A stretch of DNA of 64,000 nt from Patescibacteria group bacterium (lineage in GTDB: Bacteria; Patescibacteriota; Patescibacteriia; Patescibacteriales; JAQVLT01), in NCBI GenBank assembly GCA_028704015.1, contig JAQVLT010000003.1, positions 36,997-100,996 on the forward strand, written 5' to 3'. Below, one piece after another: positions 1,780 to 49,487 of the stretch. The notes under the pieces are model-generated. The model saw only the letters and a program-made list of their open reading frames with translations. It was not told the DNA's origin and searched no databases. The stretch's first letter is position 1. The number at the start of each line of letters is the position of its first letter. The position numbers were made by a program, and so were the translations under genes.

Positions 1780-3317
1780 TTGTTAGGAGAATTGCTATTG
1801 ACTAAATAAATTACAAATAGATAATAAATTAACACCCAGCCGAACCAAAGATAATCAACCTTGATATAAGCGTAGGGAATCCGCGACGTGTAATCAACTG
1901 CTAAAATCACAAATTTTAAAAGTAAATTCGCCGGTAGAAAAAATAAAAATGCCAAGCCGGGAAGCAAAAATCCAAGAATCATCGCCAAAAAAATAAAAAG
2001 CATTGCCGGAGCAATCGTCCAGAGAACTAATAAATTACTCAACGGCGCGACCAGGGAAATTTGCTTAAAATTATAAGCGATAATCGGCAAGGTAAAAACT
2101 TGTGCCGACAATGTTAGAGCTATAATTTCTGCGCCTAAACGAAAAAACTTATTTTTTGCTTTATCTAAATATTTTTCCCAGAGCGGATAAACATAAATCA
2201 AGCCAACTAGCGCCAAAAAAGATAGTTGAAAACCGACATCGTCCCGCAAAAGTCGCGGATTAAATAAAAGCATTGTGGCAGCTGCGAAAATCAAAGCATT
2301 GATCAGGCGACTTTTTCGACCAAGCTGAATAGCGAGCATTGCCAAAAAACTCATAACCGCCGCTCGCACCGCCGAAGCCGGCGCGCCAACCAAAATCGTA
2401 AAAATTATAATAAAAGCTAAGGACAAATAAAATGCCTGCCGCCGCCTAAGGCCAACGGCTAATAAAGCCGTCATACTGGCCGCGGCAATAATTGTCATAT
2501 TCATTCCGGAAACCGCCATGATGTGCGTGAGCCCAGTCTGCGAAAATTTCTGGTTTAATTCTTCGCCCATCCCCTGCCGGTCGCCAATCATTATCCCAAG
2601 CGCTAAACCCGACTCAGGATCAGATAGTCCAAAATTAATTATTTCGCGTATCTTATTTTTTAAAATAAAAATCTTTTTATAAAACCAATCCGCTGGTTTA
2701 TTTGTCACAATATCATCACCAATTTTTTTGATCTGCGGATAATAACAAACGGAAAAAATATTATAGCGCGCCAAATAGCGGTCATAGGAAAAATCGTTAA
2801 TCGCGTCCGGTTGTTTTAAATCACAATTAATTTCCAATTTATCGCCGAAATTATACTCGGGAAACAAATCGGCGGTGATTAATAATTTGCCGCTAACCGG
2901 TAGAGACGCATTGTCATGCGTCTCTACATTATCCGTTCCCACGGATCGTACCTTAATTTCCAATTTTTGATTATTTGACCGCACATCCGGCTCTTTATCC
3001 ACCACGCCATCTACAATAATTTTTTGGCCATTATAATGCCAAATTTTGTCCGGATAATTTTTCGGAATTGAAATTGAATAGCGCCAAACGCCAAAAAATA
3101 AAAAACAACCCCATAGGCCGAGCAGTAAAATTTTTTTATTTGACCAAGAAAAAATTGTTAAAATAAAAAACGCAACTAAAGACGAAAACCAAATAAATCT
3201 ATTTTGAATAATATTTTCTGACACGATTGAAGCCGAGACAATGCCAATAATAAAAAATAAACACAAAAATAAAAAAATCTTTGATTTAGAAAAAATAATA
3301 TCCCTCCTAAAAAACAT
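1764..3317 (-). CDS. comEC: ComEC/Rec2 DNA internalisation channel (no C-terminal MBL domain)
   Basis: 517 aa and polytopic. Competence-domain signature FSQTGLTHIMAVSGMNMTIIAA. The ORF ends before any metallo-beta-lactamase domain. Confidence 0.8.
   Translation of the reverse strand: MFFRRDIIFSKSKIFLFLCLFFIIGIVSASIVSENIIQNRFIWFSSLVAFFILTIFSWSNKKILLLGLWGCFLFFGVWRYSISIPKNYPDKIWHYNGQKIIVDGVVDKEPDVRSNNQKLEIKVRSVGTDNVETHDNASLPVSGKLLITADLFPEYNFGDKLEINCDLKQPDAINDFSYDRYLARYNIFSVCYYPQIKKIGDDIVTNKPADWFYKKIFILKNKIREIINFGLSDPESGLALGIMIGDRQGMGEELNQKFSQTGLTHIMAVSGMNMTIIAAASMTALLAVGLRRRQAFYLSLAFIIIFTILVGAPASAVRAAVMSFLAMLAIQLGRKSRLINALIFAAATMLLFNPRLLRDDVGFQLSFLALVGLIYVYPLWEKYLDKAKNKFFRLGAEIIALTLSAQVFTLPIIAYNFKQISLVAPLSNLLVLWTIAPAMLFIFLAMILGFLLPGLAFLFFLPANLLLKFVILAVDYTSRIPYAYIKVDYLWFGWVLIYYLFVIYLVNSNSPNKKSPK
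2900..2927. repeat. 28-nt GC-rich palindrome inside comEC coding sequence
   Basis: GTAGAGACGCA-TTGTCA-TGCGTCTCTAC, 11-bp perfect arms. Translated as VETHDNASL. Confidence 0.8.
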
Positions 3318-3322
3318 AAAAA

Positions 3323-3592
3323 AAATAAGAGGATATTAAAAACTCCTCTTTTTGAAATTAATCCTTTATTGGCTCATGGCCTTTCTTACGCCGTACGGCA
3401 GGCGTAAGGCGTCGGGAGGCAACACTCCTTCGGATATAATGCTGACAACTTTAGCGCCCAAAAGCGCGGCGCACCGGAAACAATCGCTCTCCCGACATCC
3501 AGGGGGACATACAACACTTTTTGGCCCTACTACGAGCAGATCCATGACTAACCTCCTTCCCTGTTGAAAAAGTACCCCCCCCTCTCTTTTTT
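3323..3592 (-). ncRNA. candidate structured RNA or cis-regulatory leader between prfB and comEC (class unknown)
   Basis: GC-rich block in an AT-rich spacer. Complementary pairs: GTCGGGAG 3411-3418 with CTCCCGAC 3489-3496; CTTACGCC with GGCGTAAG; GCGCC with GGCGC; TCATGG with CCATGA. Ends in AAGAGGA-N10-TCCTCTT plus U8 (3318-3350), which abuts the comEC ATG. No RNase P, tmRNA or SRP motifs recognised. Confidence 0.35.
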
Positions 3593-3629: not shown

Positions 3630-4727
3630 CTATATACTTCGCGCTTTGCGCAAATACGCTTCCATAAATTGTTCTAGTTCCCCATCTAAAATATTATCAA
3701 TATTTTGCGTTTCAAAATTTGTCCGATGATCTTTTACCATTTTATAAGGTTGCATGACATAAGAGCGAATTTGTTTTCCCCATTCAGCTTTCTGCGCTTC
3801 ACCGCGCATTTTCTTTTCTTCTTTGTCCTTTTCTTCTTCTTGCAATTTAAATAATTTTGATTTTAAAATTTTTAATGCGTTTTCCTTGTTCTGATGCTGA
3901 GAACGCTCAGTCTGACAAGTTACCGTGATGCCAGTCGGCTTGTGAACGACACGCACGGCCGAATCGGTAGTATTCACACTCTGACCGCCAGGACCGGATG
4001 AACGAAAAACATCAATCCGCAAATCTTCATCTTTTATTTCAATGCTTTCTGCTTCCGGCAATTCCGGTATTACCTCAACCAAAGCGAAAGAAGTATGCCG
4101 CATTTGCTCGGCGTCAAATGGCGAAATGCGAACCAAGCGATGAACGCCATTTTCACTGCGCAAATAGCCATATGCCCAGCGTCCGATAATTTTTATCACT
4201 GAGCTCTTTATACCAGCTTCATTACCCATAACTCTATCCATAATTTCCGTTTTCCAACCCCTTTTTTCCGCAAATCGTAAATACATCCGCTCTAAAATTT
4301 GCGCCCAATCTTGCGCATCAACGCCGCCCGTGCCAGCATGAATTGAAACAATTGCGTTGCTTCTGTCATATCTCCCGGAAAATAAAACTAAAAATTCAAG
4401 CTGAGAAAATTTTTCTTTCAATTCAATATATTTTTGATTTACCTCGTCATAAACCGAGACGTCATTTTCCTTCGCAGCCACTGCCGCAAATTCTTCAAGC
4501 TCTCTAACTTCTTTGGATAATTCTTCCCACTTATTTACCTCGCTCTCCAATTCTTCTAATTTTTTGCTGATTGTCACCGCCTTCTCATGATTATTCCAAA
4601 AATTGGGATTACTGATTTCCCTCTTAATTTCTCTAATTTCTGTTTTTTGCCCTTCCAAATCCAAAAGCTCCGAAGTATCTAAAATTCGCTCGCGTAATTC
4701 TTCCAAATTTTTCAATAAATTCTCCAT
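3630..4727 (-). CDS. prfB: peptide chain release factor 2
   Basis: 365 aa with the SPF tripeptide (RISPFD) and GGQ (SGPGGQSVN). One uninterrupted ORF, no +1 frameshift site. Confidence 0.92.
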   Translation of the reverse strand: MENLLKNLEELRERILDTSELLDLEGQKTEIREIKREISNPNFWNNHEKAVTISKKLEELESEVNKWEELSKEVRELEEFAAVAAKENDVSVYDEVNQKYIELKEKFSQLEFLVLFSGRYDRSNAIVSIHAGTGGVDAQDWAQILERMYLRFAEKRGWKTEIMDRVMGNEAGIKSSVIKIIGRWAYGYLRSENGVHRLVRISPFDAEQMRHTSFALVEVIPELPEAESIEIKDEDLRIDVFRSSGPGGQSVNTTDSAVRVVHKPTGITVTCQTERSQHQNKENALKILKSKLFKLQEEEKDKEEKKMRGEAQKAEWGKQIRSYVMQPYKMVKDHRTNFETQNIDNILDGELEQFMEAYLRKARSI

Positions 4728-8703: not shown

Positions 8704-8775
8704 TTTAAGAATTAAGATTTAAGAATTAAGATTTAAGAATTAATCTTAAATCGAAAATCTAAAATCAAAAATTAA

Positions 8776-8889
8776 TTATCCTTGTCTTTGTTTATGTTTA
8801 GGATTCTTGCAAATTATAAAAACCCGTCCTTTGCGTCGGACAGTTTTACAGTCTTTGCATATTTTTTTTACACTCGCGCGTACTTTCAT
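8776..8889 (-). CDS. rpmJ: 50S ribosomal protein L36
   Basis: Hand-translated 37-aa [40 protein letters not shown]. Too short for the ORF track. Confidence 0.9.
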
Positions 8890-8894
8890 AAATA

Positions 8895-15649: not shown

Positions 15650-15792
15650 GGGGAAAGAGAAAATTTTAAATTCTAAATTTTAAATTTTAAATTTTAATTA
15701 ATTGATATTGATAATTGTTAATTAATTATAATTATACTACAAAATGGTATTGAAAGTAAAATAAAAGGGCTACCCACTGAAAGTGAATAGCC

Positions 15793-17070
15793 CTAAAGAG
15801 ACAAAGAGTCTCCGGTCATGGGCGCATAAGCTTCGCACCCAAGCTCGCGCGCCAGGCAAACCACTGCCTGACAAGCTTGCGGACTGCCATGCTGGGCAAT
15901 GACAATCCGAGGTTTGACCATCTGAATCGCTTGGCGGATGGCCGCGGCATCGGAATGAGCGGAGAAGCTTAGCTTCTCAACGTGGCAGCCCAATCTGACG
16001 CGTTCTCCACCAACGGAAATATTGCCAGTTTTCAGAAGATCTCTCCCTCTTGTGTCCTCTGCCTGATAACCGGCCAAAATAAGGAGATTCTTCGGATCAG
16101 GACCTTTTACTCGGATGTATTCCATGATAGGACCGCCCTCAAGCATGCCGCTCGTGGCGACAAATACACCTTGCGAAATTAGGTGTATCTGGCGATCCCA
16201 TTGGGAAATCCGCCTGACGGAGTAAAGCGCTTGGCGAAGTGCTTCGGGATCCCGAAGATATTCCGAATGCGCGAGAAATACATCCGTCACATTATTCCCC
16301 ATGCCATCCAAATGCACCGGGCAAGAGAGGCCCATCTCGGCAAGGAGAAGGAGAATCTCTTGCGTCCTCGCCAGCGCGAAGGCGGCGATCATCACTGAAC
16401 CGCCACCAGCGATTGTCTCGGCAACCAGAGACTTAAATCTCTCTTCAACCGCAGTCCTGTCAGGATGCGACCTGTCCCCATAAGTCGCATCAATGATAAG
16501 AATCTCCGCATGCGGAAGACGCTCGCATTTTTTCACGAGGCGAGTATCCATGCTATTAAAATCGCCGGTATAAAGCAATGACCTCCTACCTTGCTTCAGA
16601 ATGATACTGACTGAGCCGGGAATATGGCCAGCCGGGAAAAACTGATAGTGGACATTGCCGCGACGACCCTTTTCTTTGTACCGCATGAGCGACAGTACTC
16701 TCTCAATGTCGCTCTCATTATATCGCGGCTCTTGCTTCTTCTTCGCCGCAATTTTCAGAGAGTCATAGAGAAGAAGCTCTGCCGCTTCTTTGGTGATCGG
16801 CGTACAGAAGACGGGGCAATTCAGCCCATCTTTTGCCAGTTCAGCCAAGCCGCCAACATGGTCAAGATGCCCATGAGAAATCGCCGCGAAGCTGATTTTC
16901 TCCAGCCGCGTGATTTTTTCGGGCCAAGCCATAATTTTGGTTCCGCCTATGTTCGCGGGTTTGAGTCCATAATCAAGAAGGATCCGAGACCCATCAGGAA
17001 ATACTGCTTCGATGCAGCTTCTCCCAACTTCGGATCCTGCACCGTGCATTGTTATCCCGATGTTTCCCAT
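15793..17070 (-). CDS. MBL-fold beta-CASP family hydrolase (RNA/DNA-processing nuclease type)
   Basis: HGHLDHVGG motif and C-terminal FSAHSDAAAI...AQHGSP (beta-CASP motifs B/C). GC-rich. The ORF track begins at GTG 17079; ATG 17070 follows GGAGA. Confidence 0.8.
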   Translation of the reverse strand: MGNIGITMHGAGSEVGRSCIEAVFPDGSRILLDYGLKPANIGGTKIMAWPEKITRLEKISFAAISHGHLDHVGGLAELAKDGLNCPVFCTPITKEAAELLLYDSLKIAAKKKQEPRYNESDIERVLSLMRYKEKGRRGNVHYQFFPAGHIPGSVSIILKQGRRSLLYTGDFNSMDTRLVKKCERLPHAEILIIDATYGDRSHPDRTAVEERFKSLVAETIAGGGSVMIAAFALARTQEILLLLAEMGLSCPVHLDGMGNNVTDVFLAHSEYLRDPEALRQALYSVRRISQWDRQIHLISQGVFVATSGMLEGGPIMEYIRVKGPDPKNLLILAGYQAEDTRGRDLLKTGNISVGGERVRLGCHVEKLSFSAHSDAAAIRQAIQMVKPRIVIAQHGSPQACQAVVCLARELGCEAYAPMTGDSLSL

Positions 17071-17131
17071 ATTGACCACATCTCCTCTCGCTTTGATTTT
17101 TAGCTAAAAAGAACAACTTTACAGATTATGA

Positions 17132-17160
17132 ATATTATCAATTAAAAATAACCCTGTCAA
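17132..17160 (-). promoter_or_regulatory. sigma70-type promoter for the MBL gene
   Basis: Minus strand reads TTGACA, 17-nt spacer, TAATAT. Confidence 0.45.
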
Positions 17161-17213
17161 CTTCAAAATATTATTTAAAATTAGCAAAAATTAATAGTTT
17201 CTTAATAAAAACG

Positions 17214-17242
17214 TTGACAAAATAATTAAGATATGTTATTAT
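17214..17242 (+). promoter_or_regulatory. sigma70-type promoter
   Basis: TTGACA (17214-17219), 17-nt spacer, TATTAT (17237-17242). Confidence 0.45.
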
Positions 17243-17272
17243 TTTATGTTAATTGTTCTTTGAAAGACGTTT

Positions 17273-17330
17273 AGTTCTTGCCGGTTTTGTTGCTAAAATT
17301 TAGCGCTAAAACCGGCAAGAACTGTTTTTT
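17273..17330 (+). terminator. leader terminator/attenuator hairpin
   Basis: Perfect 16-bp stem AGTTCTTGCCGGTTTT / AAAACCGGCAAGAACT, 19-nt loop, then GTTTTTT. Sits between the promoter and the ATG at 17392. Confidence 0.5.
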
Positions 17331-17391
17331 GTTTTCAATTTTACGCGCTTTTCGCGCGCACCCATTCACACACCACAAAGGAGGAAGCACC

Positions 17392-18096
17392 ATGACGGAA
17401 GAGCGATATGACCATATTATGGTAAGCCTCAGGGCAAACCGGAACATGGTGGAGAGGGGGCGAAAGTTGGGTCTCCCCTACGTATTCCGGACAAAGCAAC
17501 AGCAGAAAGAGCTAACCGCGCTGTATGCGGCGAAAGCGGGTGAGGCCAAGGCGTTCCGGCTGGAGCGCGAGGACACCGCCGGCAATCCCCAGGCTGACGG
17601 TGGCAACCTCGTCTTCGGACGGAATGGCCAGGAGAACATCCATCTCTGGTCCCTCTTGGACGACTTGTCCAAGGCCGGCTACGGTCTGACCATCGCCGAG
17701 GTCTTCCAGAAGGAGAGCGACAGTAACGGCGTTGGTTTCATCAGGTTTGTTTTTACCCACGACAAAGCCGTTGTGATGCCGACCTTCTTCGAGGTCAGCG
17801 AAGAACAAGAGCGCTTTATGACTCTTCTCTTCAAACGCCTTTACCGGAAGGTGCACGGTTTCCGAAACAACGCGGCGGTCTCGCTCGAGGGCGAACAAAA
17901 CCCGATCCAGGGGCCCATCATCACGCTCAACGTGGCCGGCCCAGTCACGGAAGCGCGTGAACTCGAAGAGCGGCGCCCTTATCGCCGCGACCTGCGGCTC
18001 CTGGACGAGCTCGGGCATTTCCGGTGCCCGCTCCACGACTCCCAGGCCCACGCTCTGGCCAAGAAGCAGAAGGCCTCCGTCCAGGCCCCCGCCTGA
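17392..18096 (+). CDS. hypothetical protein (GC-rich, no recognisable domain)
   Basis: The ORF track starts at 17278, but ATG 17392 is preceded by AAAGGAGGAAGCACC. 234 aa. Confidence 0.55.
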   Translation: MTEERYDHIMVSLRANRNMVERGRKLGLPYVFRTKQQQKELTALYAAKAGEAKAFRLEREDTAGNPQADGGNLVFGRNGQENIHLWSLLDDLSKAGYGLTIAEVFQKESDSNGVGFIRFVFTHDKAVVMPTFFEVSEEQERFMTLLFKRLYRKVHGFRNNAAVSLEGEQNPIQGPIITLNVAGPVTEARELEERRPYRRDLRLLDELGHFRCPLHDSQAHALAKKQKASVQAPA

Positions 18097-18262
18097 CCCC
18101 ACCCTCGTTCTTTATCTTCCGACCCAATCGGGTCATATCTGGCCCCCGGCAAGAACAACACAAAAAATCGTGTTCGTTTCTTCCGGGGGTCTTGTCTTTT
18201 TAAAAATAAAAATCCCCGAAAGGTGGGGTCAAAAAATAAATTTGAGAGCCGAAAAATCTCTA

Positions 18263-18420
18263 TTTTGTCATCTCGAATCCCCCGGTCGCAACCGGGGGTG
18301 AGAGATCTATAATACTTTGTTTTCCTATAAAGCATTATTTATGCGCTTCGCCGTATATTAAAGATCCCTGCCTGCCGGCAGGCAGGTCTCGCACGCCTCG
18401 GGCGGGTCGAGATGACAAAA
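18263..18420. mobile_element. 158-nt MITE-like element (intergenic copy)
   Basis: Perfect 14-bp TIRs TTTTGTCATCTCGA / TCGAGATGACAAAA. Internal hairpins CCCCCGG..CCGGGGG and GATCCCTGCCTGCCGGCAGGCAGG (18363-18386). Confidence 0.65.
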
Positions 18421-18444
18421 AAATATTTTTTCTCAAATTTTAAA

Positions 18445-21049: not shown

Positions 21050-21235
21050 GCTTTAAATTATTTTAAATGTTAATTGAATGGGGACGAAAATTTTAAATTA
21101 TAAATTTTAAATTTTAATTAAATGATAAATTACTAAATTTTAAATTTTCCTTTGCAGCTAAGGCAACTCGGGAAAACAAAATTTGTCATTTTATTATTTA
21201 AAATTGATTTAAAATTTAAAATTTGATATTTAAAA

Positions 21236-22117
21236 TTATCTTTTTACTTTCTCAATAATCTCGGCCAAACCGTCGTCATCAAAAAACTCAATCACGATTT
21301 CACCCCCATGCCCCTTGCGTTTGATCTCCACTTTGGAGCCAAAAAATTCGCGCAAAGCAAATTCTTTATCCTTGTCGGCGTAATTAATTTTGATACGCGC
21401 ATTTTTTGTGCCGCCCATGCGCCGTGCTTCTTGATTGGTGTCGCGTACTGTTAAATTATTATGTAGAATGCGCCGGAATAAAGCCATTTGCTTATCCAGT
21501 GATTCAAGCCCCAAGATAAACTTAGCATGGCCATCAGTAATTTTTCCTTCAATCAAGGCTAACTGTACTTCTTCTGGCAAGTTTAAAAGACGTAAAGCAT
21601 TAGTTACTACCGGACGCGACTTCCCTACTTTTCTACCTACTTCTTCCTGCGTTAAACTAAATTCGTCAATCAATTTCTGGTAAGCAATCGCGGTTTCAAT
21701 GGGATTTAAATTTTCTCTTTGCAAATTTTCAATTAAAGCTATTTCTAATTTTTCCTGTTCGCCGGCTTCGCGCACGATTACCGGCACTTCTTTTAAACTC
21801 AAAGATTGCGATGCGCGCAAACGCCGTTCGCCGGCGATTAGTTCGTAACCATCAACAGACCTGGTAACAATGAGCGGCTGGATAATGCCATATTGTCGCA
21901 CAGACTCAATCAATTCGTCCAAACTGTAATCGGCAAATCTTTGCCGCGGCTGATGCGGGTTGACTTTTATTTGCGCGGGTGAAATTCGTAATATTTTATC
22001 TTTGTCTTCCGGCGTAATAGTTTCAATTACCTTAATCTCGCCATCTGCCGAAGCATCTTGTTTTTTTACTTTTGGAGGAATCAGCGAACTAAGTCCGCGA
22101 CCTAATGTATTGGACAT
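21236..22117 (-). CDS. parB: ParB/Spo0J partition protein
   Basis: GERRLRAS, LIENLQRENLNPIE, HTH region. Confidence 0.9.
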   Translation of the reverse strand: MSNTLGRGLSSLIPPKVKKQDASADGEIKVIETITPEDKDKILRISPAQIKVNPHQPRQRFADYSLDELIESVRQYGIIQPLIVTRSVDGYELIAGERRLRASQSLSLKEVPVIVREAGEQEKLEIALIENLQRENLNPIETAIAYQKLIDEFSLTQEEVGRKVGKSRPVVTNALRLLNLPEEVQLALIEGKITDGHAKFILGLESLDKQMALFRRILHNNLTVRDTNQEARRMGGTKNARIKINYADKDKEFALREFFGSKVEIKRKGHGGEIVIEFFDDDGLAEIIEKVKR

Positions 22118-22124
22118 AACTTAA

Positions 22125-22161
22125 AATTTTTAATTTTTAATTTTGTAATTTTTAAATAATA
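22125..22161. repeat. left arm of a perfect 37-bp inverted repeat
   Basis: AATTTTTAATTTTTAATTTTGTAATTTTTAAATAATA is the exact reverse complement of 22554-22590. Confidence 0.85.
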
Positions 22162-22186
22162 TTTTAATTTCAAATATTTAATAAAT

Positions 22187-22531
22187 TTATTCCTTGCAAC
22201 TTTTTGAAATTTTGGCAAAAATTAAAGTTAATTCATGAGCTTCTTGCCATAACTTCCGACATTTTTCTATCTGCTCAGTATTGGCAATAGCAATCATTCT
22301 TAACCAGTGTTTTGTTTCATTAGCCTCTTTCTGGCAAATTTTTATTTTATTTCTGAAATCTTTTTTAGAGCAACCCTGATTGGCTTCCATATAATTAGCG
22401 CCAATACTTGTGGCTGATCTGACTAGTTGATTTACTAATGGCTTATTAATATTATTATAATCTATTAGTTTGCAAAATATTATAATTTTTTCACCAAACT
22501 TAGCTGTCCTTTCTTCTAGATCATAAATCAT
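22187..22531 (-). CDS. four-helix-bundle protein (23S rRNA intervening-sequence protein / Avd-like family)
   Basis: 114 aa. SIGANYMEANQGCSKKDFRNKIKICQKEANETKHWL is the family signature. Confidence 0.8.
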   Translation of the reverse strand: MIYDLEERTAKFGEKIIIFCKLIDYNNINKPLVNQLVRSATSIGANYMEANQGCSKKDFRNKIKICQKEANETKHWLRMIAIANTEQIEKCRKLWQEAHELTLIFAKISKSCKE

Positions 22532-22553
22532 ATTAAAAATTAGGATATTTGTT

Positions 22554-22590
22554 TATTATTTAAAAATTACAAAATTAAAAATTAAAAATT
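22554..22590. repeat. right arm of a perfect 37-bp inverted repeat
   Basis: TATTATTTAAAAATTACAAAATTAAAAATTAAAAATT. Confidence 0.85.
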
Positions 22591-23349
22591 CTACAAGGCT
22601 ATTATTTCCTTCGCCAACTTCTCATACGCTCTGCCGCCGCGCGAAGACGGATCATAATGGAGAATAGAACGACCATAGCTTGGAGCTTCAGCTAATTTAA
22701 CACTGCGGGGAATAATAGTGCGGAAAATTCGATTAGGAAAATATTGGTAAAGCTCATTCATAACCGCGCCGGAAAGCCGATTGCGATTATCATACATCGT
22801 AATCACCGCGCCCATTATACCAAGTTCCGGTTTTAAATTTCCTTGCACGAGTCCAATCGTTTCCAAAAGCTGGCTTAATCCTTCCAGCGCGTAATATTCG
22901 CTCTGAATGGGAATCAAAACTTCGTCAGCGGCTACCAAGCTATTTACCGTGAGCAAACCAAGCGATGGCGGCCCGTCAATGATAATAAAATCATAATCAT
23001 CGCGCACGCTATTAATAATTTTTGCCAAGCGATATTCACGTTCTTCCATGCCAACTAATTCAATGCCGGCGCCCGCCAAAGAAAGAGTTGCCGGCGCCAC
23101 ATCAAAACCAACCTGCATGGTTTTTTTAAGCACCTCAAACATTGTTTTTTGTCCGATTAAAGCCTCGTAAATGCCATGTTCCAGACTACGATGATCTACG
23201 CCAAGACCACTTGTAGCATTGGCCTGCGGATCAATATCCACGAGCAAAACCTGCTTTCCTAAATACGCCAAATACGCGCCCAAATTCACCGCGGTAGTTG
23301 TTTTTCCTACTCCGCCTTTTTGATTTACGATAGAAATTATTTTACCCAT
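22591..23349 (-). CDS. parA: ParA/Soj partition ATPase
   Basis: Deviant Walker A NQKGGVGKTTTAVNLGA. Confidence 0.92.
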   Translation of the reverse strand: MGKIISIVNQKGGVGKTTTAVNLGAYLAYLGKQVLLVDIDPQANATSGLGVDHRSLEHGIYEALIGQKTMFEVLKKTMQVGFDVAPATLSLAGAGIELVGMEEREYRLAKIINSVRDDYDFIIIDGPPSLGLLTVNSLVAADEVLIPIQSEYYALEGLSQLLETIGLVQGNLKPELGIMGAVITMYDNRNRLSGAVMNELYQYFPNRIFRTIIPRSVKLAEAPSYGRSILHYDPSSRGGRAYEKLAKEIIAL

Positions 23350-23549
23350 AGAAATCAGTAAAATAGTAAACAGTAATTAGTAAATAATAATTTATCTACC
23401 ATTTACTAATTACTGTCTGTTATTTACTAAATATTATACCCCACTTTTTTTCCTTTGACAATTTAGAAAAAATAATTTATATTATTTATATAAAAACAGT
23501 GTCCATATTCACTGTATTTTTAATTAGAAATCAAACAAAATTAATTTTA

Positions 23550-23633: not shown

Positions 23634-23708
23634 CAAATAATTTTTGATTTTCGATTTTTGAATAATGTTTACTTAAAAAATCTAAAATCGTAAATCAAAA
23701 ATTACTAA

Positions 23709-23780
23709 GGACGCTTAGCTCAGCTGGTTACCCGCCCGTACCGAACGCGGTACGTTCGGGCGGGGAGCGCCTCGTTTACA
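23709..23780 (+). pseudogene. tRNA-Val 5' half (nt 1-37) disrupted by a 34-nt GC palindrome in the D-loop
   Basis: GGACGCTTAGCTCAGCTGGTTA [CCCGCCCGTACCGAACGCGGTACGTTCGGGCGGG] GAGCGCCTCGTTTACA. Apart from the insert it is identical to 24027-24064. Confidence 0.75.
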
Positions 23781-23794
23781 ACTAATAATTTAAT

Positions 23795-24049
23795 ATGTAC
23801 ACAGTGTATATTTTAAAAGATGAAAATGGAAATTTGTATAAAGGCATGACAAGTGATATAAAACGAAGATTAAATGAACATCGGCGAGGAAAAACACAAA
23901 CTACTAGAAGAATGAAAAATATCAAATTAGTTTATCAAGAAGAGCTGGCTACATTTGATGCTGCACGCAAAAGAGAATTATATTTGAAAACTGCCGCTGG
24001 AAGAAAATTTATAAAAGAAAAATTAAGGACGCTTAGCTCAGCTGGTTAG
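23795..24049 (+). CDS. small GIY-YIG nuclease family protein (UPF0213/YhbQ-like)
   Basis: 84 aa. YTVYILKDENGNLYKGMTSDIKRRLNEHRRGK... The last 7-8 codons and the stop lie inside tRNA-Val. Confidence 0.85.
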   Translation: MYTVYILKDENGNLYKGMTSDIKRRLNEHRRGKTQTTRRMKNIKLVYQEELATFDAARKRELYLKTAAGRKFIKEKLRTLSSAG

Positions 24050-24103
24050 AGCGCCTCGTTTACACCGAGGAGGTCGAGGGTTCGATCCCTTCAGCGTCCA
24101 CCA
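24027..24103 (+). tRNA. tRNA-Val(TAC), CCA encoded
   Basis: Hand-folded. GGACGCT/AGCGTCC acceptor, D-arm GCTC..GAGC, anticodon stem CCTCG/CGAGG with loop TTTACAC, T-loop TTCGATC, then ACCA. Confidence 0.92.
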
Positions 24104-24107
24104 AAAA

Positions 24108-24134
24108 AGCTAAACCAAGGGGGTTTAGCTTTTT
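24108..24134 (+). terminator. hairpin AGCTAAACC-AAGGG-GGTTTAGCT plus TTTT
   Basis: Read directly, immediately 3' of tRNA-Val. Confidence 0.55.
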
Positions 24135-24185
24135 GTTCTTTTGTAACCTGGTAAAAACCAAAACAAGACAAGGAAGGAGTTCGCC

Positions 24186-25805
24186 ATGAAGAATGAAAAA
24201 AAACCGGAAAAGGTTGCCTTGTTGAGCGTTTTCAACAAGGACGGGATTGTGGAGTTTGCTCGCACCCTCAAGAACATGGGCTGGAAACTTCTTGCTTCCG
24301 GGGGCACGGCGCAGACGCTCAAAAACGCCGGGCTGGAAGTCAAGGATGTCGCGGACCTGGTCGGCGGCGGCGCTATTCTTGGACACCGCGTGGTCACGCT
24401 CTCACGGGAAATCCACGCCGGCCTTTTGGCGCGTGACATCCCTGAGGACAACGCGGAGCTGGACCGGCTGGGGATCCCGCGCATCGATCTTCTTTGCTCG
24501 GATCTCTACCCGCTTGAGCTGGCCATTGCCGCAGGTAAAACCATGCCCGAGGTCATTGAGATGACCGACATCGGCGGACCCACGCTGATCCGTTCGGCGG
24601 CAAAAGGCCGCCGTATTGTCATCTGCAACCCAAGGGACCGCATGGTTGTTCTCGGCTGGATGACCAGCGGCGAGCTGGACAAGGAAAGCTTCTTAAACAT
24701 GCTTGCCGCCAAAGCCGAAATGACCGTCGCCCGCTACGCACTATCTTCGGCGCGTTTCATCAGCGGCGGCGAGTTCGACGGTTTCCTCGGCCAACGCTAT
24801 CTTGAATGCCTATACGGGGAAAACGCCCCGCAGACTCCGGCCGGCGTCTTTAGCGCCCGTACAAGCGACCTGCTGGCGCTGGACAAACTCCGGCTCTTGA
24901 CCGAAACGTCGTCAAGCTACAACAATACGTGCGACCATGACCGGCTGCTCCAGACAATCACGCACATCGCCGCCGGCTTTGACCTCAACTTCGGCGAAGT
25001 GCCATATATCGCCGTGGCGGTCAAACACGGCAATCCCTGCGGCGTTGGCGTTGGAAAGACGCCGGAAGAAGCTCTCAAGAAGATGATTGACGGCGATCTT
25101 CGCGCCATTCTCGGCGGCATCGTCATGACCAACTTCCTGATAGACGAGACGGCCGCGAAAATCCTGGCCGTCTACCAGGTGCCCGTAAGGAAAAGGCGCT
25201 TGCTGGACGGGATTATCTGCCCGGTCATCACAGATAAGGCCGTTGCGATGCTCGAACGGAAAAAAGCCAAATGCCGGATTCTCATGAACCCTGCTCTAGC
25301 GGAACTGAACGAGAAATCACTGGACACGGCTCCCCGCCTTCGCTGCGTCCGCGGCGGATTTATGGTTCAGCCGAACTACACTTTCATTCTGGATCTGAAC
25401 CACCCGGAAATGAAAAAGTTCGGCCAGGCCACGCCTGAACAGAAACGCGCTATGGTGCTTGCCTGGGCTATCGCAGCCACGGCCAACAGCAACACCATCG
25501 CGCTTGTGAAGGACGGCATGCTTGTCGGCCTGGGATCTGGCCAGCAAGACCGTGTCGGCGCTTGCAAGGTGGCCTGTTTCCGAGCTGACGAATCCGGCCA
25601 TGACATCTTTGGGGCGATTGCGGCAAGCGATAGCTTCTTCCCCTTTGATGATGGCCCGCGCGCCCTTGCCGACAGGGGCGTCAAGGTGATCTTTTCTACC
25701 TCTGGCTCGATCAACGACCAAGCGGTCATTGACTTCTGCCAGGAAAACGGCATCGTGCTCTACATGCTTCCGGACAAGGTGGCCAGGGGTTTCTTCGGCC
25801 ACTAA
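24186..25805 (+). CDS. purH: bifunctional AICAR transformylase / IMP cyclohydrolase
   Basis: 539 aa. MGS-like N-terminus ALLSVFNKDGIVEFARTL..LASGGTAQTL and AICARFT domain. SD GGAGT upstream. GC-rich. Confidence 0.9.
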   Translation: MKNEKKPEKVALLSVFNKDGIVEFARTLKNMGWKLLASGGTAQTLKNAGLEVKDVADLVGGGAILGHRVVTLSREIHAGLLARDIPEDNAELDRLGIPRIDLLCSDLYPLELAIAAGKTMPEVIEMTDIGGPTLIRSAAKGRRIVICNPRDRMVVLGWMTSGELDKESFLNMLAAKAEMTVARYALSSARFISGGEFDGFLGQRYLECLYGENAPQTPAGVFSARTSDLLALDKLRLLTETSSSYNNTCDHDRLLQTITHIAAGFDLNFGEVPYIAVAVKHGNPCGVGVGKTPEEALKKMIDGDLRAILGGIVMTNFLIDETAAKILAVYQVPVRKRRLLDGIICPVITDKAVAMLERKKAKCRILMNPALAELNEKSLDTAPRLRCVRGGFMVQPNYTFILDLNHPEMKKFGQATPEQKRAMVLAWAIAATANSNTIALVKDGMLVGLGSGQQDRVGACKVACFRADESGHDIFGAIAASDSFFPFDDGPRALADRGVKVIFSTSGSINDQAVIDFCQENGIVLYMLPDKVARGFFGH

Positions 25806-25829
25806 TCAAAATTCTTTTAATCCTCCAGC

Positions 25830-25876
25830 AGGACTTTCAAAGTTTCTTACGAGAAACTACGAAAGTCCTTTTTTTC
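25830..25876 (+). terminator. hairpin AGGACTTTC...GAAAGTCCT plus T7
   Basis: Read directly after purH. Confidence 0.6.
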
Positions 25877-26024
25877 TTGCTTTTTTCTTAAAATTTATCT
25901 AATATAAAGTTAGAAAGGAGGGCCAATCTTATCGTAAGATTCGGCTCTTTTTGCACCTTGAAAAAATCGATTTTGAAAACCGTAGAGATAAACTGACAAC
26001 CCCTCAACGGAAAGGACTGATGCA

Positions 26025-27509
26025 ATGGACGAACGGTATACCATAGAAAAAATTACGAAAATCTGGTCGACTGAGAACAAGCTCAGTCTCTGGCAAAAAA
26101 CCGAACTCATGGCAATCAAAGCCAGGGTGATTCTCGGCCTTGTCGCCGAGACGATTTTCCTGAAGATCGAGGAAACGCTCAAGCGAATCCCGATTGACAT
26201 CCCGTGGTGGAAAAACCGCGACAAAGAGATCCGCCACGACCTTAACGCCTTTCTCGATGAGAGACTCCGTCACCTGACCGAGGAATTACAGCGCTACCTG
26301 CACGAGGACATGACCTCCTACGATACGGAGGAACCGGCTTTTGTGTGCATGCTCAGGGAGTCAGTGCAGATTGTCATCAGGAGTCTGGAAGAAGTCTGCA
26401 AAACTCTGAAAGCAATGGCACTCAAATACCGCTACACAATCATGAACGCCAGAACCCACGGACAGGAAGCCAAGCTGCAAAGCTTTGGTAAAAGATGCCT
26501 TACCTGGTACGTGATTTTGCAATTAGACCTCAACAACCTGAAGAATACGGTCAGTTCTCTCAAGTATGCCAAGCTTTCCGGCGCTGCCGGGAACTACGGC
26601 GACATGGATCCGGCGGTGGAGATCGAAACTCTGAAACAGCTTGGATTCGAACCGCTCTACGGCACACCCCAGATCCTTCCCCGCGAGCTTTTTGCTCCAC
26701 TGGCGCAAGCGCTCTGCCAGATCGTGCAGTCGTTGGACAAAATCGCGACCGATATTAGATTAGGCGCGCGTAGTGGACGGCCGATCTTGCAAGAGCCGTT
26801 CGGAAAAAAGCAAAAGGGCTCTTCCGCCATGCCGCATAAAAAAAACACCATCCGCACCGAGCAGATGGAAGGCATGGCGCGCATGGCGCGCGGCTACATG
26901 AATATGATCCTGGAAGCGATCAAAACCTGGGAAGAACGGGCTATTGAACAATCCTGCGTGGAAAGAGTGGCCTGGCCTGATCTCTTCCATGTGGTCGTTC
27001 ATTCACTGAAAACCATGAACGCAGTACTAACCGGCCTAACCGTTTATCCCGACAATATGCTTCTGGAAATCGCTGATTCCTGCGGAACTTACGCTTCGGA
27101 AGAAGCAAAAAAGCTTCTCCGGGAATTCCTGGCGGAACGCGGATTGTCAAGCGAAGTGGCCTACCGTATCGTGCAACTCGCCGCCTTCAATGCTCTGGAA
27201 CTTAGCGGCGGTTTCCAAAGATTGCGTGATGGCATTCCTTCAACGATAGAAGAAGCGGAAGTGGCGTTAAAGGAAGCTTCTAGTTTGGATCGACCAAGGA
27301 GAGAAAGCATCCAGGACATCATCCCTTTAGGCCATTTGCGCCACTCACCCCAACTCGAAGCTACCGAGAAAGAAATCGAGGGATGGAACGTGATGCTGTT
27401 CACCATCTTCTCGAGTCGCAGAATTCGCGATCGCTGGAACCAAATCTTCCGGCCGTCATACCAGCTAAGACGCGAACCTTTTCTCTACGAAAAGATACTT
27501 GGAAAATAA
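26025..27509 (+). CDS. purB: adenylosuccinate lyase
   Basis: Fumarate-lyase signature GSSAMPHKKNT. N-terminus RYTIEKITKIWSTENK. Confidence 0.9.
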   Translation: MDERYTIEKITKIWSTENKLSLWQKTELMAIKARVILGLVAETIFLKIEETLKRIPIDIPWWKNRDKEIRHDLNAFLDERLRHLTEELQRYLHEDMTSYDTEEPAFVCMLRESVQIVIRSLEEVCKTLKAMALKYRYTIMNARTHGQEAKLQSFGKRCLTWYVILQLDLNNLKNTVSSLKYAKLSGAAGNYGDMDPAVEIETLKQLGFEPLYGTPQILPRELFAPLAQALCQIVQSLDKIATDIRLGARSGRPILQEPFGKKQKGSSAMPHKKNTIRTEQMEGMARMARGYMNMILEAIKTWEERAIEQSCVERVAWPDLFHVVVHSLKTMNAVLTGLTVYPDNMLLEIADSCGTYASEEAKKLLREFLAERGLSSEVAYRIVQLAAFNALELSGGFQRLRDGIPSTIEEAEVALKEASSLDRPRRESIQDIIPLGHLRHSPQLEATEKEIEGWNVMLFTIFSSRRIRDRWNQIFRPSYQLRREPFLYEKILGK

Positions 27510-27535
27510 CCCCCCCCACCGAAAGGAGACCGCCC

Positions 27536-28093
27536 ATGAATCCTAAATTTGTACCGCAAGTCGTAATCATCGCCGGAAGCGACACGGATCTCAAAGCGAT
27601 TGAAGATGCCGGTATGTTGAAGGCCTTCCAGGAAATGAGCATAACCTACGCTCTTTCCTTTCTCTCCGCACACCGCCATCCTGATGATCTGAAGAACTAT
27701 TTACTCGCCATGGAAAAGGAAGGTACTCTAGTTTTCATCGGGATCGCCGGCATGTCCGCTGCTCTTCCTGGAGATATGTCAGCAATTCTCAAAAACAAAC
27801 GTCCTGTCATCGGAGTTCCTTTGATCGCACCCGACGGATTCAGCGGTCTGGATGCTCTTTTCTCCATGATCCGTTTGCCAGCAAGCACTGCCGTGGCCGT
27901 CCCGGGAATCGGCAAAGCAGGACTGAAAAACGCGACGATCCTTGCTTGCCAGATTCTTGGAGTAGAGCGGCCCGAAACACAGGTCGCTTTGAACAACTAC
28001 CTCACGAAAAAAGCGGCCAAAAAGCCACCCCAACCCGACTTCGAAATTTTTAACGGGAAAACCGTTCACCACCAACATAAAGGAGGAGCATAA
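27536..28093 (+). CDS. purE: PurE (AIR carboxylase / N5-CAIR mutase family)
   Basis: VVIIAGSDTDL, SAHRHPDD, AGMSAALPG, PVIGVPL. The ORF track starts at 27383, but ATG 27536 follows GAAAGGAGA. Confidence 0.85.
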   Translation: MNPKFVPQVVIIAGSDTDLKAIEDAGMLKAFQEMSITYALSFLSAHRHPDDLKNYLLAMEKEGTLVFIGIAGMSAALPGDMSAILKNKRPVIGVPLIAPDGFSGLDALFSMIRLPASTAVAVPGIGKAGLKNATILACQILGVERPETQVALNNYLTKKAAKKPPQPDFEIFNGKTVHHQHKGGA

Positions 28094-28096
28094 CCC

Positions 28097-28987
28097 ATGA
28101 TCCAGCCCCTGTTCGAAACCAACTTTCCCGGCCTTCCCGTTCCTCGTCGCGGCAAAGTCCGCGACATCTATGACCTAGGTGATTTTCTGCTCATGGTCGC
28201 CACTGACCGGCTATCAGCTTTCGACGTGGTCATGAAGGACCCGATCCCAGGTAAAGGCATTACCCTCACGCAGATGACCTTGTTCTGGCTGGAAATGTTC
28301 GCAGATATGGTGTTGAACCACTTGGTTACGGCTGATCCCGCCCAGTACCCGGACATCTGCAAACCCTACGCCGACATTCTTGTCGGCCGCAGCATGCTGG
28401 TCAAAAAATGTGCGCCCCTGCCAGTGGAATGCATCGTCCGCGGCTACCTTAGCGGTTCCGGCTGGAATGATTACAAAAAGACCGGATGCGTCTGCGGCAT
28501 CCAGCTTCCGCCCGGCCTTCTGGAATCGGCGCAGCTTCCTGAACCGATTTTCACGCCTTCTACCAAGGCTGAGCAGGGCAAGCACGACGAGAACATTTTG
28601 TTTGAACAAGCAGTAAAACTACTCAGCCGCGAGACCGCAGAAAAAATCCAAAAACTCTCACTCGCGCTCTACCAACGGGCCGCGGCTCATGCCCGCAGAC
28701 GCGGCATCATCATAGCGGACACGAAATTCGAGTTCGGGCTTGATAAAGACGGCAACATCGTGCTGATAGACGAGGTTCTCACCTCGGATTCATCCAGGTT
28801 TTGGCCCGCCGCCCAATACGAACCCGGACATGGCCAGCCGAGCTTTGACAAACAAGGCGTCCGCGACTTTCTGGTTAAGATCGGCTGGGACAAAAAGCCG
28901 CCTGCACCCAAACTCCCGATCGGCGTCATCGCCGAGACGCGCGAGAAGTACCTGAAGGCTCTCCGCCTCCTCACCGGCCAATTCTAA
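28097..28987 (+). CDS. purC: SAICAR synthetase
   Basis: GKVRDIYD, LIDEVLTSDSSRFW. Confidence 0.92.
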   Translation: MIQPLFETNFPGLPVPRRGKVRDIYDLGDFLLMVATDRLSAFDVVMKDPIPGKGITLTQMTLFWLEMFADMVLNHLVTADPAQYPDICKPYADILVGRSMLVKKCAPLPVECIVRGYLSGSGWNDYKKTGCVCGIQLPPGLLESAQLPEPIFTPSTKAEQGKHDENILFEQAVKLLSRETAEKIQKLSLALYQRAAAHARRRGIIIADTKFEFGLDKDGNIVLIDEVLTSDSSRFWPAAQYEPGHGQPSFDKQGVRDFLVKIGWDKKPPAPKLPIGVIAETREKYLKALRLLTGQF

Positions 28988-29016
28988 CACCAACCGCTCC
29001 TTTCTTCACTTCTAAC

Positions 29017-38625: not shown

Positions 38626-38682
38626 ACAGATAGCAGATAGCAGATAGCAGCAAATTTCTGCCGTCTGCTATCTATTTTCTAT

Positions 38683-42765: not shown

Positions 42766-42802
42766 GTTTGATGAGTTTGTATTAGCTAAAATATTAACAA
42801 TA

Positions 42803-42960
42803 AAATCCTAAATTCTAAACTCTAAATTCTAAACAAGCACAAAACTCAAAACACAAAATCCAAAACAACTTCTAAATTTTTAATTTTTGATATTTAAAAT
42901 TGTTTTGTGCTTTGGATTTTTAATTTTGGATTTGTTTAGAATTTAGGATTTAGTGCTTAG
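42803..42960. repeat. about 160-nt AT-rich imperfect hairpin in an intergenic spacer
   Basis: Outer 18-bp perfect arms AAATCCTAAATTCTAAAC (42803-42820) / GTTTAGAATTTAGGATTT (42934-42951), with further imperfect inner pairing. Confidence 0.7.
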
Positions 42961-42989
42961 AATTTTTTCAAACATTTTGCAGATTTGCA

Positions 42990-44231: not shown

Positions 44232-44318
44232 AGCGCAAATTTTAAATATTAAATTTTAAATCAATTTTAAATGATAAATGACAATTAAAAATTTAATAAT
44301 TTATCATTCAATTAAAAT

Positions 44319-45497
44319 TTATAATTTAAAATTTAAAATTTTACTGTATTCCTTTCCCACTCTTTCCCAACTAAATTTTTCCACTCTTTTCAAACCTTTC
44401 GCGATTAAGCTTTCACGCAATTTTTGATTATTTAAAACTTCTTCAATCGCTTTGGCGATTTCATTAATATTAAAAGGATTTACCAGTATTGCCGCCTCGC
44501 CGACAACTTCCGGCAGACTGGAAACCGCGCTCGCGATTACCGGCGTGCCCGAGGCCATAGCTTCAAGCGGCGGAAAACCGAATCCTTCATAAAAAGACGG
44601 GAAAACAAAAACCGAAGCAAGTTTGTAGAGAGCCGGCTTGTCTTCGTCATCAACATACCCCAAGAATATTATATCATTTTTATACTTAGATTTCTCGCGC
44701 TCCGCCAAAATACTCTCATATTTCCAGCCCATGCCACCAGCTATAATCAACTTTTGACAACCTGCCTGCCGGCAGGCAAGGTTAACATTTGACAATTGAC
44801 TTCTATACTTATTGTAAGCCTGAATAAGGCCAACGATATTTTTTCTCGGCTCAACCGTACCCAAAAATAAAATGTATTTTTCTGGAAGGTTATATTTCTT
44901 TCTAATATTTTGAAATTTGGGAATTGAAAATTGAAAATTGAAAATTTTAAAGCGTTCATCAACACCCGAGTATATTACCCTCGCTTTCTCCTCTGGCACC
45001 CCACATAATTCCACAACATCCCGTCTGGTGTTTTCCGATATCGCAATTACTAAATCAAACTGCTTAATCAATTTTTTTACATTCAAGGCACGGTGCCAAA
45101 TATTTTTTCGCCAGCTGAAATACTCCGGATACCGCAGAAATGACAAATCATGAATGGTGATAATTTTCCGGCAATCCGAGGAAAGCGACAAAAAATTAAT
45201 GTGCGGCGCCCAAAAAACATCCACTCCGCCTAGCAACTTGTCAATCTTCGGCCAGCAAAAAATTTTTTGCAAAATATAATTAAAAATTTTATTCGGATAT
45301 TTGGTTCTATAAATTTTAACATTGGGCTGATCAAATTTCGGCAACCGCTCGCTGATATCGCGATAAGAATTGTAATATAACAAATATTCATTACTCTTAT
45401 CCTCTGCTAAAATTTCTTTAACTAAAGCCAACGTGTACTCCGACACGCCACTATATCGCTTATCCATGAGTGTCCGAATATCAATGCCAATTTTCAT
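44319..45497 (-). CDS. GT4-family glycosyltransferase
   Basis: [20 protein letters not shown]. Contains the insert [12 protein letters not shown]. Confidence 0.85.
44759..44783. repeat. 25-nt palindrome of the CCTGCCTGCCGGCAGGCAGG family, in frame
   Basis: AACCTGCCTGCCGGCAGGCAAGGTT. Confidence 0.75.
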
Positions 45498-49424: not shown

Positions 49425-49487
49425 TTTTTTATTTTTTCTCTCCTTTTAATAAGGAGAGATTTAAATGAGACTTTAAATTTCACTAAT

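Follow-up and report, generated by a model that had tools for sequence, protein, structure and literature searches.

A gene cassette of the rRNA intervening-sequence type between parA and parB in a Patescibacteria genome, and the inverted heptamer arrays that enclose its gene

Introduction

Why should a gene of the kind carried in rRNA intervening sequences (IVSs) lie between the chromosome-partition genes parA and parB, enclosed by an exact inverted repeat? The question is raised by a stretch of 64,000 nt from a metagenome-assembled contig of a Patescibacteria group bacterium (GenBank assembly GCA_028704015.1, contig JAQVLT010000003.1, positions 36,997 to 100,996; hereafter the window, with positions counted from its first letter), in which a 466-nt cassette at the parA-parB junction holds a gene for a four-helix-bundle (4HB) protein between two inverted arrays of tandem heptamers. 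An earlier reading made from the letters alone (the sequence-only reading) had noticed the repeats and the gene and had interpreted them as either a mobile cassette or a processing site that uncouples parA from parB.

Here, we confirm that observation and support its interpretation, with two corrections: the arms of the repeat are tandem-heptamer arrays, in a genome whose spacers are pervaded by gene-less heptamer palindromes, and perfect complementarity of the arms is unusual within the cassette family. To our knowledge, rRNA IVSs and their S23p open reading frames (ORFs) have been known since the early 1990s, with no agreement on their origin or function, and we know of only one studied member of the protein family PF05635, namely Avd, the accessory protein of diversity-generating retroelements (DGRs).

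Anatomy of the cassette

The two arms, at 22125-22161 and 22554-22590, are exact reverse complements of each other (37/37), and the repeat lengthens to 40 nt at 98% (22122-22161/22554-22593). When the 37-mer was sought in the window with up to three mismatches, only its two own sites matched, with none expected from 100 shuffles. One ORF only lies between the arms (22187-22531, minus strand, 114 aa), on the same strand as parA and parB. Repeat search, mismatch scan, ORF map and profile matches all bear out what the sequence-only reading had seen here: perfect arms that bracket nothing other than a 4HB gene between parA and parB. As the upstream arm runs from the base next to the parA stop codon and only 7 nt part the downstream arm from the parB ATG, the spacer is filled by the cassette. 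Its parts and then its neighbours, all on the minus strand, are as follows (identities are mean pairwise identities).

22554..22590, minus strand: upstream (5′) arm, AATTTTT AATTTTT AATTTTG TAATTTTT AAATAATA, tandem heptamers plus inner AAATAAT motif
22532..22553, minus strand: leader, 22 nt, from arm to 4HB ATG; identity 0.63
22187..22531, minus strand: 4HB gene, 114 aa (23S rRNA IVS protein/S23p/TIGR02436 family; PF05635, TIGR02436)
22162..22186, minus strand: trailer, 25 nt, from 4HB stop to downstream arm; identity 0.68
22125..22161, minus strand: downstream (3′) arm, TATTATTT AAAAATTA CAAAATT AAAAATT AAAAATT; identity 0.88
22591-22593, minus strand: parA stop codon, abutting the outer end of the upstream arm
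22118..22124, minus strand: residual host spacer, 7 nt, TTAAGTT (gene strand), from cassette to parB start codon
22591..23349, minus strand: parA (ParA/Soj-type ATPase), host gene upstream of the cassette (PF13614, E=7e-65; PF01656)
21236..22117, minus strand: parB (ParB/Spo0J), host gene downstream of the cassette (PF17762, PF02195, PF23552, TIGR00180)
23433..23461, minus strand: best sigma-70-like promoter match, upstream of parA (TTGTCA-17-TATAAT, 11/12)

The 22-nt leader (22532..22553) contains no Shine-Dalgarno-like motif, and TAATTTTTAAT, directly before the 4HB ATG, is moderately conserved. The same locus is also present in NCBI assembly GCA_028707515.1 (contig JAQWAV010000016.1).

Insertion into the parA-parB junction

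For comparison with relatives, 80 parB loci were taken from contigs with one genome per species; parA, parB and any 4HB gene were located and every spacer was read (fetched loci carry labels of the form L004). Among ParB relatives of up to 57% identity, the spacers are mostly 1-30 nt long, the ancestral condition of a tight parA-parB operon. Three closer relatives (L015, L020 and L021; ParB 58-67%) have an empty spacer of 27-28 nt, and many others in that range have some palindromic insert there. Among these inserts are gene-less hairpins of (AATTTTC)n heptamers and G+C-rich TGTCATTGCGAG...CTCGCAATGACA elements.

A 4HB gene, or the remnant of one, was found in this spacer only in L004, L023 and L163. 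That of L004 is 33% identical to the window's and has AATTTGC-type arms, and L023 has a 177-nt internally deleted copy of the same cassette type that keeps both arms and the first ~27 codons. In the protein collection, ParB identity to relatives reaches 82%, in L162, with a 162-nt heptamer hairpin lacking a gene, and in L163/L164, with a 125-aa 4HB gene (34% identical) that has AAAAAAT/ATTTTTT arrays either side. Because the closest relatives carry different elements, the parA-parB junction is a hot spot with turnover, at which the cassette is not fixed by vertical inheritance; it is an insertion, absent from most relatives. The sequence-only reading had proposed that relatives be compared for an empty site, and such sites exist, both at 27-28 nt in the three closer relatives and at 1-30 nt in distant ones. 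It had also named a finding that would speak against it, a cassette present throughout the lineage with diverged arms; instead, most relatives lack a 4HB gene at this junction and the two closest carry other elements.

Inserts of other kinds share the junction. In L002 (487-868; one of the two best ParB relatives in the genome collection, 67%), the spacer holds a GIY-YIG nuclease ORF between inverted repeats TCGTCATTCCCGC / GCGGGGATGACGA, a second type of single-gene cassette at the parA-parB junction. In L007 (1074-2257), a 1.18-kb insert combines a 230-aa Cys-rich ORF with three copies of the palindromic ACCGAATACGGTATTCGGyGACAGACC. G+C-rich palindromic inserts with ends like TGTCATTGCGAGGAGC...GCTCGCAATGACA occupy the spacers of L010, L011, L018, L024, L026, L003, L034 and L035, and one member of this second family lies in the window itself at 18238-18440 (ends TGTCATCTCGA...TCGAGATGACA); the family is found at junctions of the kind that heptamer elements occupy.

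A family of cassettes at unrelated loci

Eighty metagenome loci were fetched for homologues of the 4HB protein, and 64 distinct cassettes were aligned with 130 nt of flank. Mean pairwise identity is 0.28-0.31 outside the arms, 0.82 in the upstream arm and 0.88 in the downstream arm, and 0.78, 0.86 and 0.49 at codon positions 1, 2 and 3. Conservation begins and ends sharply at the outer ends of the arms, which are conserved to the same degree as codon positions 1-2. The flanks consist of gene ends, gene starts and tRNAs that are unrelated to one another, and the closest homologues of the window's cassette (81-87%) share its arms and lie at loci unrelated to its own. Terminal inverted repeats (TIRs) and dispersed copies with conserved ends at unrelated loci, the features by which MITEs (miniature transposable elements with inverted repeats) are recognised, are both present.

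A 22-nt arm motif, allowed up to three mismatches, occurs in the cassette loci 151 times next to 4HB genes versus 24 times elsewhere, and gives no more than weak, chance-like matches in the remainder of the window and across the parB loci (578 kb). The motif is tied to 4HB genes and is not the generic gene-less spacer hairpin that the sequence-only reading had set as the observation to count against it. The matches elsewhere include pairs of arms without a gene, which are mini derivatives of the cassette (L112 at 2346-2487 and 4087-4170; L125 at 568-649; L091 at 203-286).

Placement is as regular as sequence. Of the neighbours of the 64 cassettes, 48/51 upstream and 43/49 downstream ones run in the cassette's direction; across the family, the left arm starts at a median of 1 nt past the upstream stop codon and the right arm ends at a median of 8 nt ahead of the next start codon. 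In L082/L086, the cassette (2942-3406) lies exactly between tRNA-Met (end 2943) and tRNA-Lys (start 3414). From the co-directional neighbours, the tight gaps to stop and start codons and the fit between tRNAs, it follows that the element, lying in sense orientation, sits where one mature product of a transcription unit ends and the next begins, the way an IVS does in rRNA. With a family at unrelated loci and absence from most relatives, these comparative data support the mobile-cassette reading well.

An ordinary resident gene of the parAB operon, with an inverted repeat that is no more than a similar A+T-rich, promoter- or terminator-like spacer on both sides, would be an alternative, and the A+T-rich spacers of this genome, full of period-7 hairpins, speak for it, as does the recurrence of a 4HB gene or remnant in the same spacer of L004, L023 and L163. 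Most relatives, however, have no gene there, the ancestral spacer being 1-30 nt; the 4HB proteins of L004 and L163 are just 33-34% identical to the window's and have different arms, although ParB is 63-82% identical; the 81-87% homologues lie elsewhere with the same arms; the arm motif is not found at the window's other spacers; and no promoter or terminator signal rises above background (see below). We consider a resident gene very improbable and the idea largely refuted.

Four left arms of the family (L108, L122, L128 and L130) contain small G+C-rich hairpins (e.g. CCTGCCAGAGGCAGACCAGCCCAGGGCTG) nested between the heptamer array and the AAATAAT motif, and there one palindromic element has therefore been inserted into another.

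The 4HB protein

The 114-aa protein matches PF05635 (23S_rRNA_IVP; E=9e-15, 55.2 bits versus a cut-off of 33.8) and TIGR02436 (four helix bundle protein; E=3e-21, 75.6 bits versus a cut-off of 24), and it matches PDB entry 2RLD by sequence (E=1.6e-13). An AlphaFold 2 (AF2) model, with a predicted local distance difference test (pLDDT) score of 94.3, has four helices, and Foldseek places it at a template modelling (TM) score of 0.80 to 2RLD and 0.83 to 2GSC, both pentamers of the S23p family. Scores above the curated cut-offs of PF05635 and TIGR02436 are joined by a fold like that of 2RLD/2GSC, and by profile and predicted structure the gene truly belongs to the 23S-IVS/S23p family, to which the sequence-only reading had assigned it.

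Homologues of the PF05635 type number 7,196 as representatives of 50%-identity clusters at E<=1e-3, and those annotated at 70-87% identity to the window's protein run into thousands, from many lineages of the candidate phyla radiation (CPR). Among the 64 cassette copies, the ratio of non-synonymous to synonymous substitution rates (dN/dS) is ~0.12, with dS saturated at 1.3-1.9. A low dN/dS with saturated dS, together with conserved arms, implies that the protein is functional, that the copies are old and that the arm sequence is under purifying selection. A viral origin was considered and rejected, as a search of IMG/VR turned up no relative and INPHARED phages gave just two partial matches.

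DGRs are reportedly common in the CPR. A role for the gene as the Avd of a DGR, with the repeats as part of that system, is suggested further by the breadth of PF05635, which also covers Avd (PMC10053308), and by Foldseek matches to Avd structures 4DWL and 8UB7 (TM 0.63-0.68, with 0.65-0.68 for 4DWL); the model is nearer to the stand-alone S23p proteins 2RLD and 2GSC. There is no reverse transcriptase (RT) among the genes called within ~6 kb to each side (SAICAR synthase, AIRC, PurH, GIY-YIG, ParA, ParB, GT4 and TruD), no convincing RT motif in the window's ORFs and no pair of template and variable repeats (TR/VR), the sole long repeat being the inverted arm pair. With neither an RT nor a TR/VR pair, we reject the DGR reading as most improbable, the least credible of those considered here.

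Heptamer arrays in the window

The cassette is set in a genome rich in similar repeats. When the cassette is left out, the spacers of the window give autocorrelation peaks at lags 7, 14 and 21 (0.363, 0.333 and 0.318, versus ~0.31), and period 7 is the best period in 17/39 spacers; coding DNA in the window has period 3. Over-represented tandem 7-nt units between genes, by which heptameric simple sequence repeats (SSRs) and the cyanobacterial STRR type are recognised, are present in these spacers. Gene-less heptamer palindromes occupy many operon junctions of the window; clear cases, together with further arrays, are:

21086-21240: gene-less heptamer palindrome, directly after parB
23361-23425: gene-less heptamer palindrome in the parA leader
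23638-23704: gene-less heptamer palindrome, exactly between tRNA-Leu and a tRNA-Val fragment
42802-42966 and 44237-44341: gene-less heptamer palindromes
8704-8894, 15650-15792 and 38626-38682: further heptamer arrays

The cassette is the gene-bearing member of this pervasive class of intercistronic heptamer palindromes. Two further inverted repeats were tried as gene cassettes and rejected: 7670-7695/8717-8742 encloses the genes for ribosomal proteins S13 and S11 and resolves into two arrays at successive junctions, and 46681-46714/47948-47987 encloses genes without a Pfam match.

The same kind of repeat is found inside a structural RNA. RNase P RNA (49486-49945) is 460 nt long versus a model of 367 nt, and one insert in it, at a helix tip (model positions ~136/137), is a hairpin of GAUUUNN heptamers.

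Elsewhere in the window, 23709-23781 is a duplicated 5′ half of tRNA-Val whose D-loop holds a G+C-rich palindrome of 36 nt (23730-23765). Next comes a GIY-YIG ORF of 84 aa (23795-24049), the end of which overlaps an intact tRNA-Val (24027-24103). The whole of 23709-24103 looks like a GIY-YIG element inserted at the tRNA-Val anticodon loop and bringing along a copy of the 5′ half by which the tRNA is restored. Two islands stand out in G+C content from a contig of ~36%, namely 16001-18000 (~50%) and 24001-29000 (52-56%), the second of which holds genes of purine synthesis (PurH, AIRC and SAICAR synthase); they could be horizontal acquisitions or an assembly chimera.

Heptamer arrays across 4HB genes and phyla

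Divergent CPR 4HB genes (27-47% identity) are also enclosed by inverted tandem heptamers, of other sequences: AAATCCG/CGGATTT arms in L115 (47% identity), AACTTGT/ACAAGTT arms of ~13 units in L104 (27% identity) and AAAAACA-type arms in L155. Between subfamilies, both arms switch together and stay complementary, so complementarity itself is maintained. These three loci (L104, L115 and L155) each have two 4HB cassettes of different subfamilies, every one with its own heptamer, 1-1.5 kb apart in the same genome.

Searching plasmids with tblastn returned 31 records, mostly from Nostoc and other cyanobacteria, with Treponema, Bernardetia and Chlorohelix also represented. Eighteen plasmid-borne 4HB loci were fetched (L166-L183; cyanobacterial, Chloroflexota, Treponema and Bernardetia), and tandem periods of 4-12 were scored in 150-nt flanks. 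Period 7 proved the best tandem period in both flanks at 18/18 loci, and a lag-7 run score of at least 12 was reached by 30/36 4HB flanks versus 8/243 control windows from the same plasmid loci. The 4HB gene of Nostoc flagelliforme has a perfect 32/32 inverted (AATTCGT)4, and the other plasmid arrays include (GGTCGGA)n, (AATTCAA)n, (AATTCGC)n, (AATCCCC)(AATCGTA)n, (AGTAAAA)n and (CAGTTAC)n. Identity is 79-99% between proteins with a common heptamer and never exceeds 78% between proteins whose heptamers differ. The arrays are, on this evidence, a deep feature of the 4HB gene family, shared across phyla.

On the plasmids, too, 4HB genes lie between operon genes (cas2|cas1, drmD|MmeI, helicase|methylase and DUF1156|Swt1-HEPN). 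These are defence operons, and in two cas2|cas1 cases the 4HB gene is antisense; the setting may reflect the sample of plasmids or a real preference.

Transcription, RNA folding and processing

A promoter scan found no site within the cassette that scores above shuffled sequence, and a terminator scan of 22100-22600 found none, the arms being 392 nt apart with a single G-C pair and offering no short G+C-rich stem followed by a U tract. Lacking a recognisable promoter or terminator, the cassette most probably shares the parA-parB message. Only upstream of parA (23461-23433) is there a strong promoter-like site, which is the likely start of a parA-cassette-parB transcript. In the predicted fold of the sense-strand RNA (minimum free energy −107.3 kcal/mol, z = −5.6 versus shuffles), the arms form a 40-bp closing stem; the long AU-rich duplex around the ORF that the sequence-only reading had foreseen on the parAB transcript is borne out at the level of prediction.

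Our preferred account, which we hold to be probable with some reserve, is that of an IVS-type selfish cassette, one 4HB gene within inverted heptamer arrays, inserted in sense right after the parA stop codon, co-transcribed with parAB and cut by RNase III at the stem that its arms form. The cassette would have entered a formerly tight parA-parB junction, directly past the parA stop; parA, cassette and parB would be carried on one message; and pairing of the arms would give an A-U-rich duplex of 37-40 bp, with the 4HB cistron in the loop. To judge by the analogous 23S rRNA IVSs, this duplex would be an RNase III substrate, and the cut would free the 4HB mRNA and part parA from parB. We infer co-transcription and stem formation in vivo from the sequence and its predicted fold; RNase III cleavage would follow from the rRNA precedent, and fold and precedent together make a processing site that uncouples parA and parB plausible.

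Several observations weigh against this account. Across 64 junction pairs there is no consistent target-site duplication outside the arms (the junctions not being set by a near-identical empty site), and there is no transposase or recombinase in the cassette, whose sole ORF is the 4HB gene, or in nearby genes. None of 18 scanned cassette loci (those with the largest gaps to neighbouring ORFs) adjoins rRNA. The arms themselves call for caution. Typical cassette arms pair imperfectly, scoring 10-34 of 37, and the 37/37 of the window's copy is the best of 49; moreover, within the subfamily the two arms of one cassette complement each other no better than they complement arms taken from other elements (mean percentile 0.513, p = 0.68). 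With no excess of own-arm complementarity and with imperfect arms, selection appears, within the subfamily, to maintain the sequence of the arms and not the fine detail of their pairing. A comparison of G:U with A:C in arm pairing, meant to tell which strand or molecule pairs, gave a weak excess of G:U (91 vs 60), in copies that are related and in extended alignments that enter low-complexity sequence. An A-U-only duplex is also weak per base pair, and no RNase III signature motif was found in the ORFs of the 64-kb window, which says nothing on the whole genome. Conserved arms without fine compensation, and a private heptamer for each subfamily, fit recognition by a protein, perhaps the 4HB pentamer itself, at least as well as an RNA stem.

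The last point leads to a rival account at the level of DNA, in which the heptamer arrays are protein-binding sites, like the subterminal repeats of transposons or iterons, for the 4HB pentamer or for a host or trans-acting recombinase; at operon junctions they would mediate insertion, excision or the exchange of cassettes, and the RNA stem would be a by-product. It accommodates arms conserved at 0.82-0.88 while synonymous sites are saturated, the lack of compensatory pairing within the subfamily, a separate heptamer for each protein subfamily with the repeats of both arms switching together, and also the sharp boundaries, gene-less minis, hairpins nested in arms and turnover at the parA-parB junction. 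The missing target-site duplication and the missing transposase or recombinase count against it as well, however; symmetric ends would not be expected to give the sense bias of 48/51, barring selection for expression that enforces it; neither DNA binding nor catalysis has been demonstrated for the 4HB family; and co-inheritance of gene and arms would alone yield a correlation between protein and heptamer. We judge the DNA-level account rather doubtful and stay with the co-transcribed IVS-type cassette.

What the locus may mean

The wider regularity, 4HB genes within inverted heptamer arrays at operon junctions across phyla, is a more interesting result than the single locus. Together, locus and comparative data suggest that rRNA IVSs, intergenic heptamer repeats and the PF05635 family are facets of one type of element, which takes junctions in operons, tRNAs and rRNAs in sense orientation. 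If the stem is cleaved, the cassettes would amount to a widespread and unrecognised form of operon uncoupling in the small genomes of Patescibacteria, acting here on the chromosome-partition genes parA and parB.

We offer a broader generalisation tentatively, as a possibility that we rate below our account of the locus: PF05635 4HB genes with inverted heptamer arrays might form one pan-bacterial class of mobile intercistronic cassettes. 23S IVSs, many orphan heptamer repeats (of the STRR type, Xanthomonas GGGAATC pairs and gene-less CPR palindromes) would belong to it as special cases or derivatives, possibly with DGR Avd as well, and the 4HB pentamer would recognise, in DNA or RNA form, the array of its own cassette, driving spread or maintenance, with co-evolution of subfamily and heptamer. 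In the literature, we found no prior link of heptamer arrays to PF05635 genes and no CPR 4HB cassettes; older subscription papers were not covered, so an earlier description is possible.

Comparison with known systems

Correia/NEMIS elements of Neisseria, REP/BIME and ERIC are short, intercistronic, palindromic, MITE-like elements that are co-transcribed with their neighbours; Correia hairpins are RNase III substrates, with 26-bp TIRs, a TA target duplication and no ORF. The cassettes resemble such elements in being short, with terminal inverted repeats, and in lying between genes, and the resemblance extends to the gene-less hairpins and to the minis of L112, L125 and L091. Unlike Correia elements, they have heptamer arrays as arms, no target duplication was found at them and their full form has a conserved gene.

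DGR Avd (4DWL, 8UB7) has a fold of the same superfamily, a four-helix bundle that forms pentamers, and takes part in nucleic-acid transactions as a partner; its structural match to the window's protein is weaker (TM ~0.65) than that of the S23p proteins (0.80-0.83), and no RT or TR/VR was found here.

Tandem heptanucleotides in cyanobacteria go by the name STRR. Over-represented intergenic heptamer repeats were described from Xanthomonas and Nostoc as SSRs and candidates for G-quadruplexes (Rehm et al. 2015; PMC4692102); 70-75 convergent pairs form inverted repeats in Xanthomonas, and the heptamers of both genera lie mostly between co-directional ORFs, close to the end of the upstream ORF, and were linked to no gene or function (PMC4692102). 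The cassette arms are likewise tandem heptamers, intergenic and mostly between co-directional ORFs; unlike these SSRs, the arrays of the cassette and of 18/18 plasmid 4HB loci are inverted and flank a PF05635 gene.

The closest likeness is to the 23S rRNA IVS. That of Coxiella burnetii is 428 nt long and closed by a terminal stem of 28 bp; its loop holds an S23p ORF, which three tandem GACAGAT heptamers precede. Its excision by RNase III was shown in vitro and its ORF is decaying (PMC4990558). IVSs of 23S rRNA with an S23p ORF are found also in Leptospira, Xanthomonas and Brucella (PMC4990558), and IVP ORFs have been reported in insertions of CPR 16S and 23S rRNA genes (PMC11270868). Some differences are plain. 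The host of the cassette is a protein-coding junction, parA|parB, not the tip of an rRNA helix (helix 25/45), and an Rfam scan found no rRNA in the window, so that insertion into rRNA, which defines a 23S IVS, is absent here. The cassette's ORF is under strong purifying selection (dN/dS ~0.12), whereas that of Coxiella is decaying, and excision by RNase III, demonstrated for the IVS, would be expected of the cassette by analogy. Size, content and design nonetheless agree: a protein of the same family is encoded in the loop (IVS 428-444 nt, cassette 466 nt), inverted repeats form the termini (28 bp versus 37-40 bp), tandem heptamers stand in arm or leader (GACAGAT x3 in Coxiella, AATTTTT/AATTTTG here), and the ORF is sense to the host transcript at a site where excision spares the flanking RNAs. 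Stem, S23p ORF in the loop and heptamers bear out the view of the sequence-only reading that this is the same kind of package as a 23S IVS, and the locus is an IVS-type element outside rRNA.

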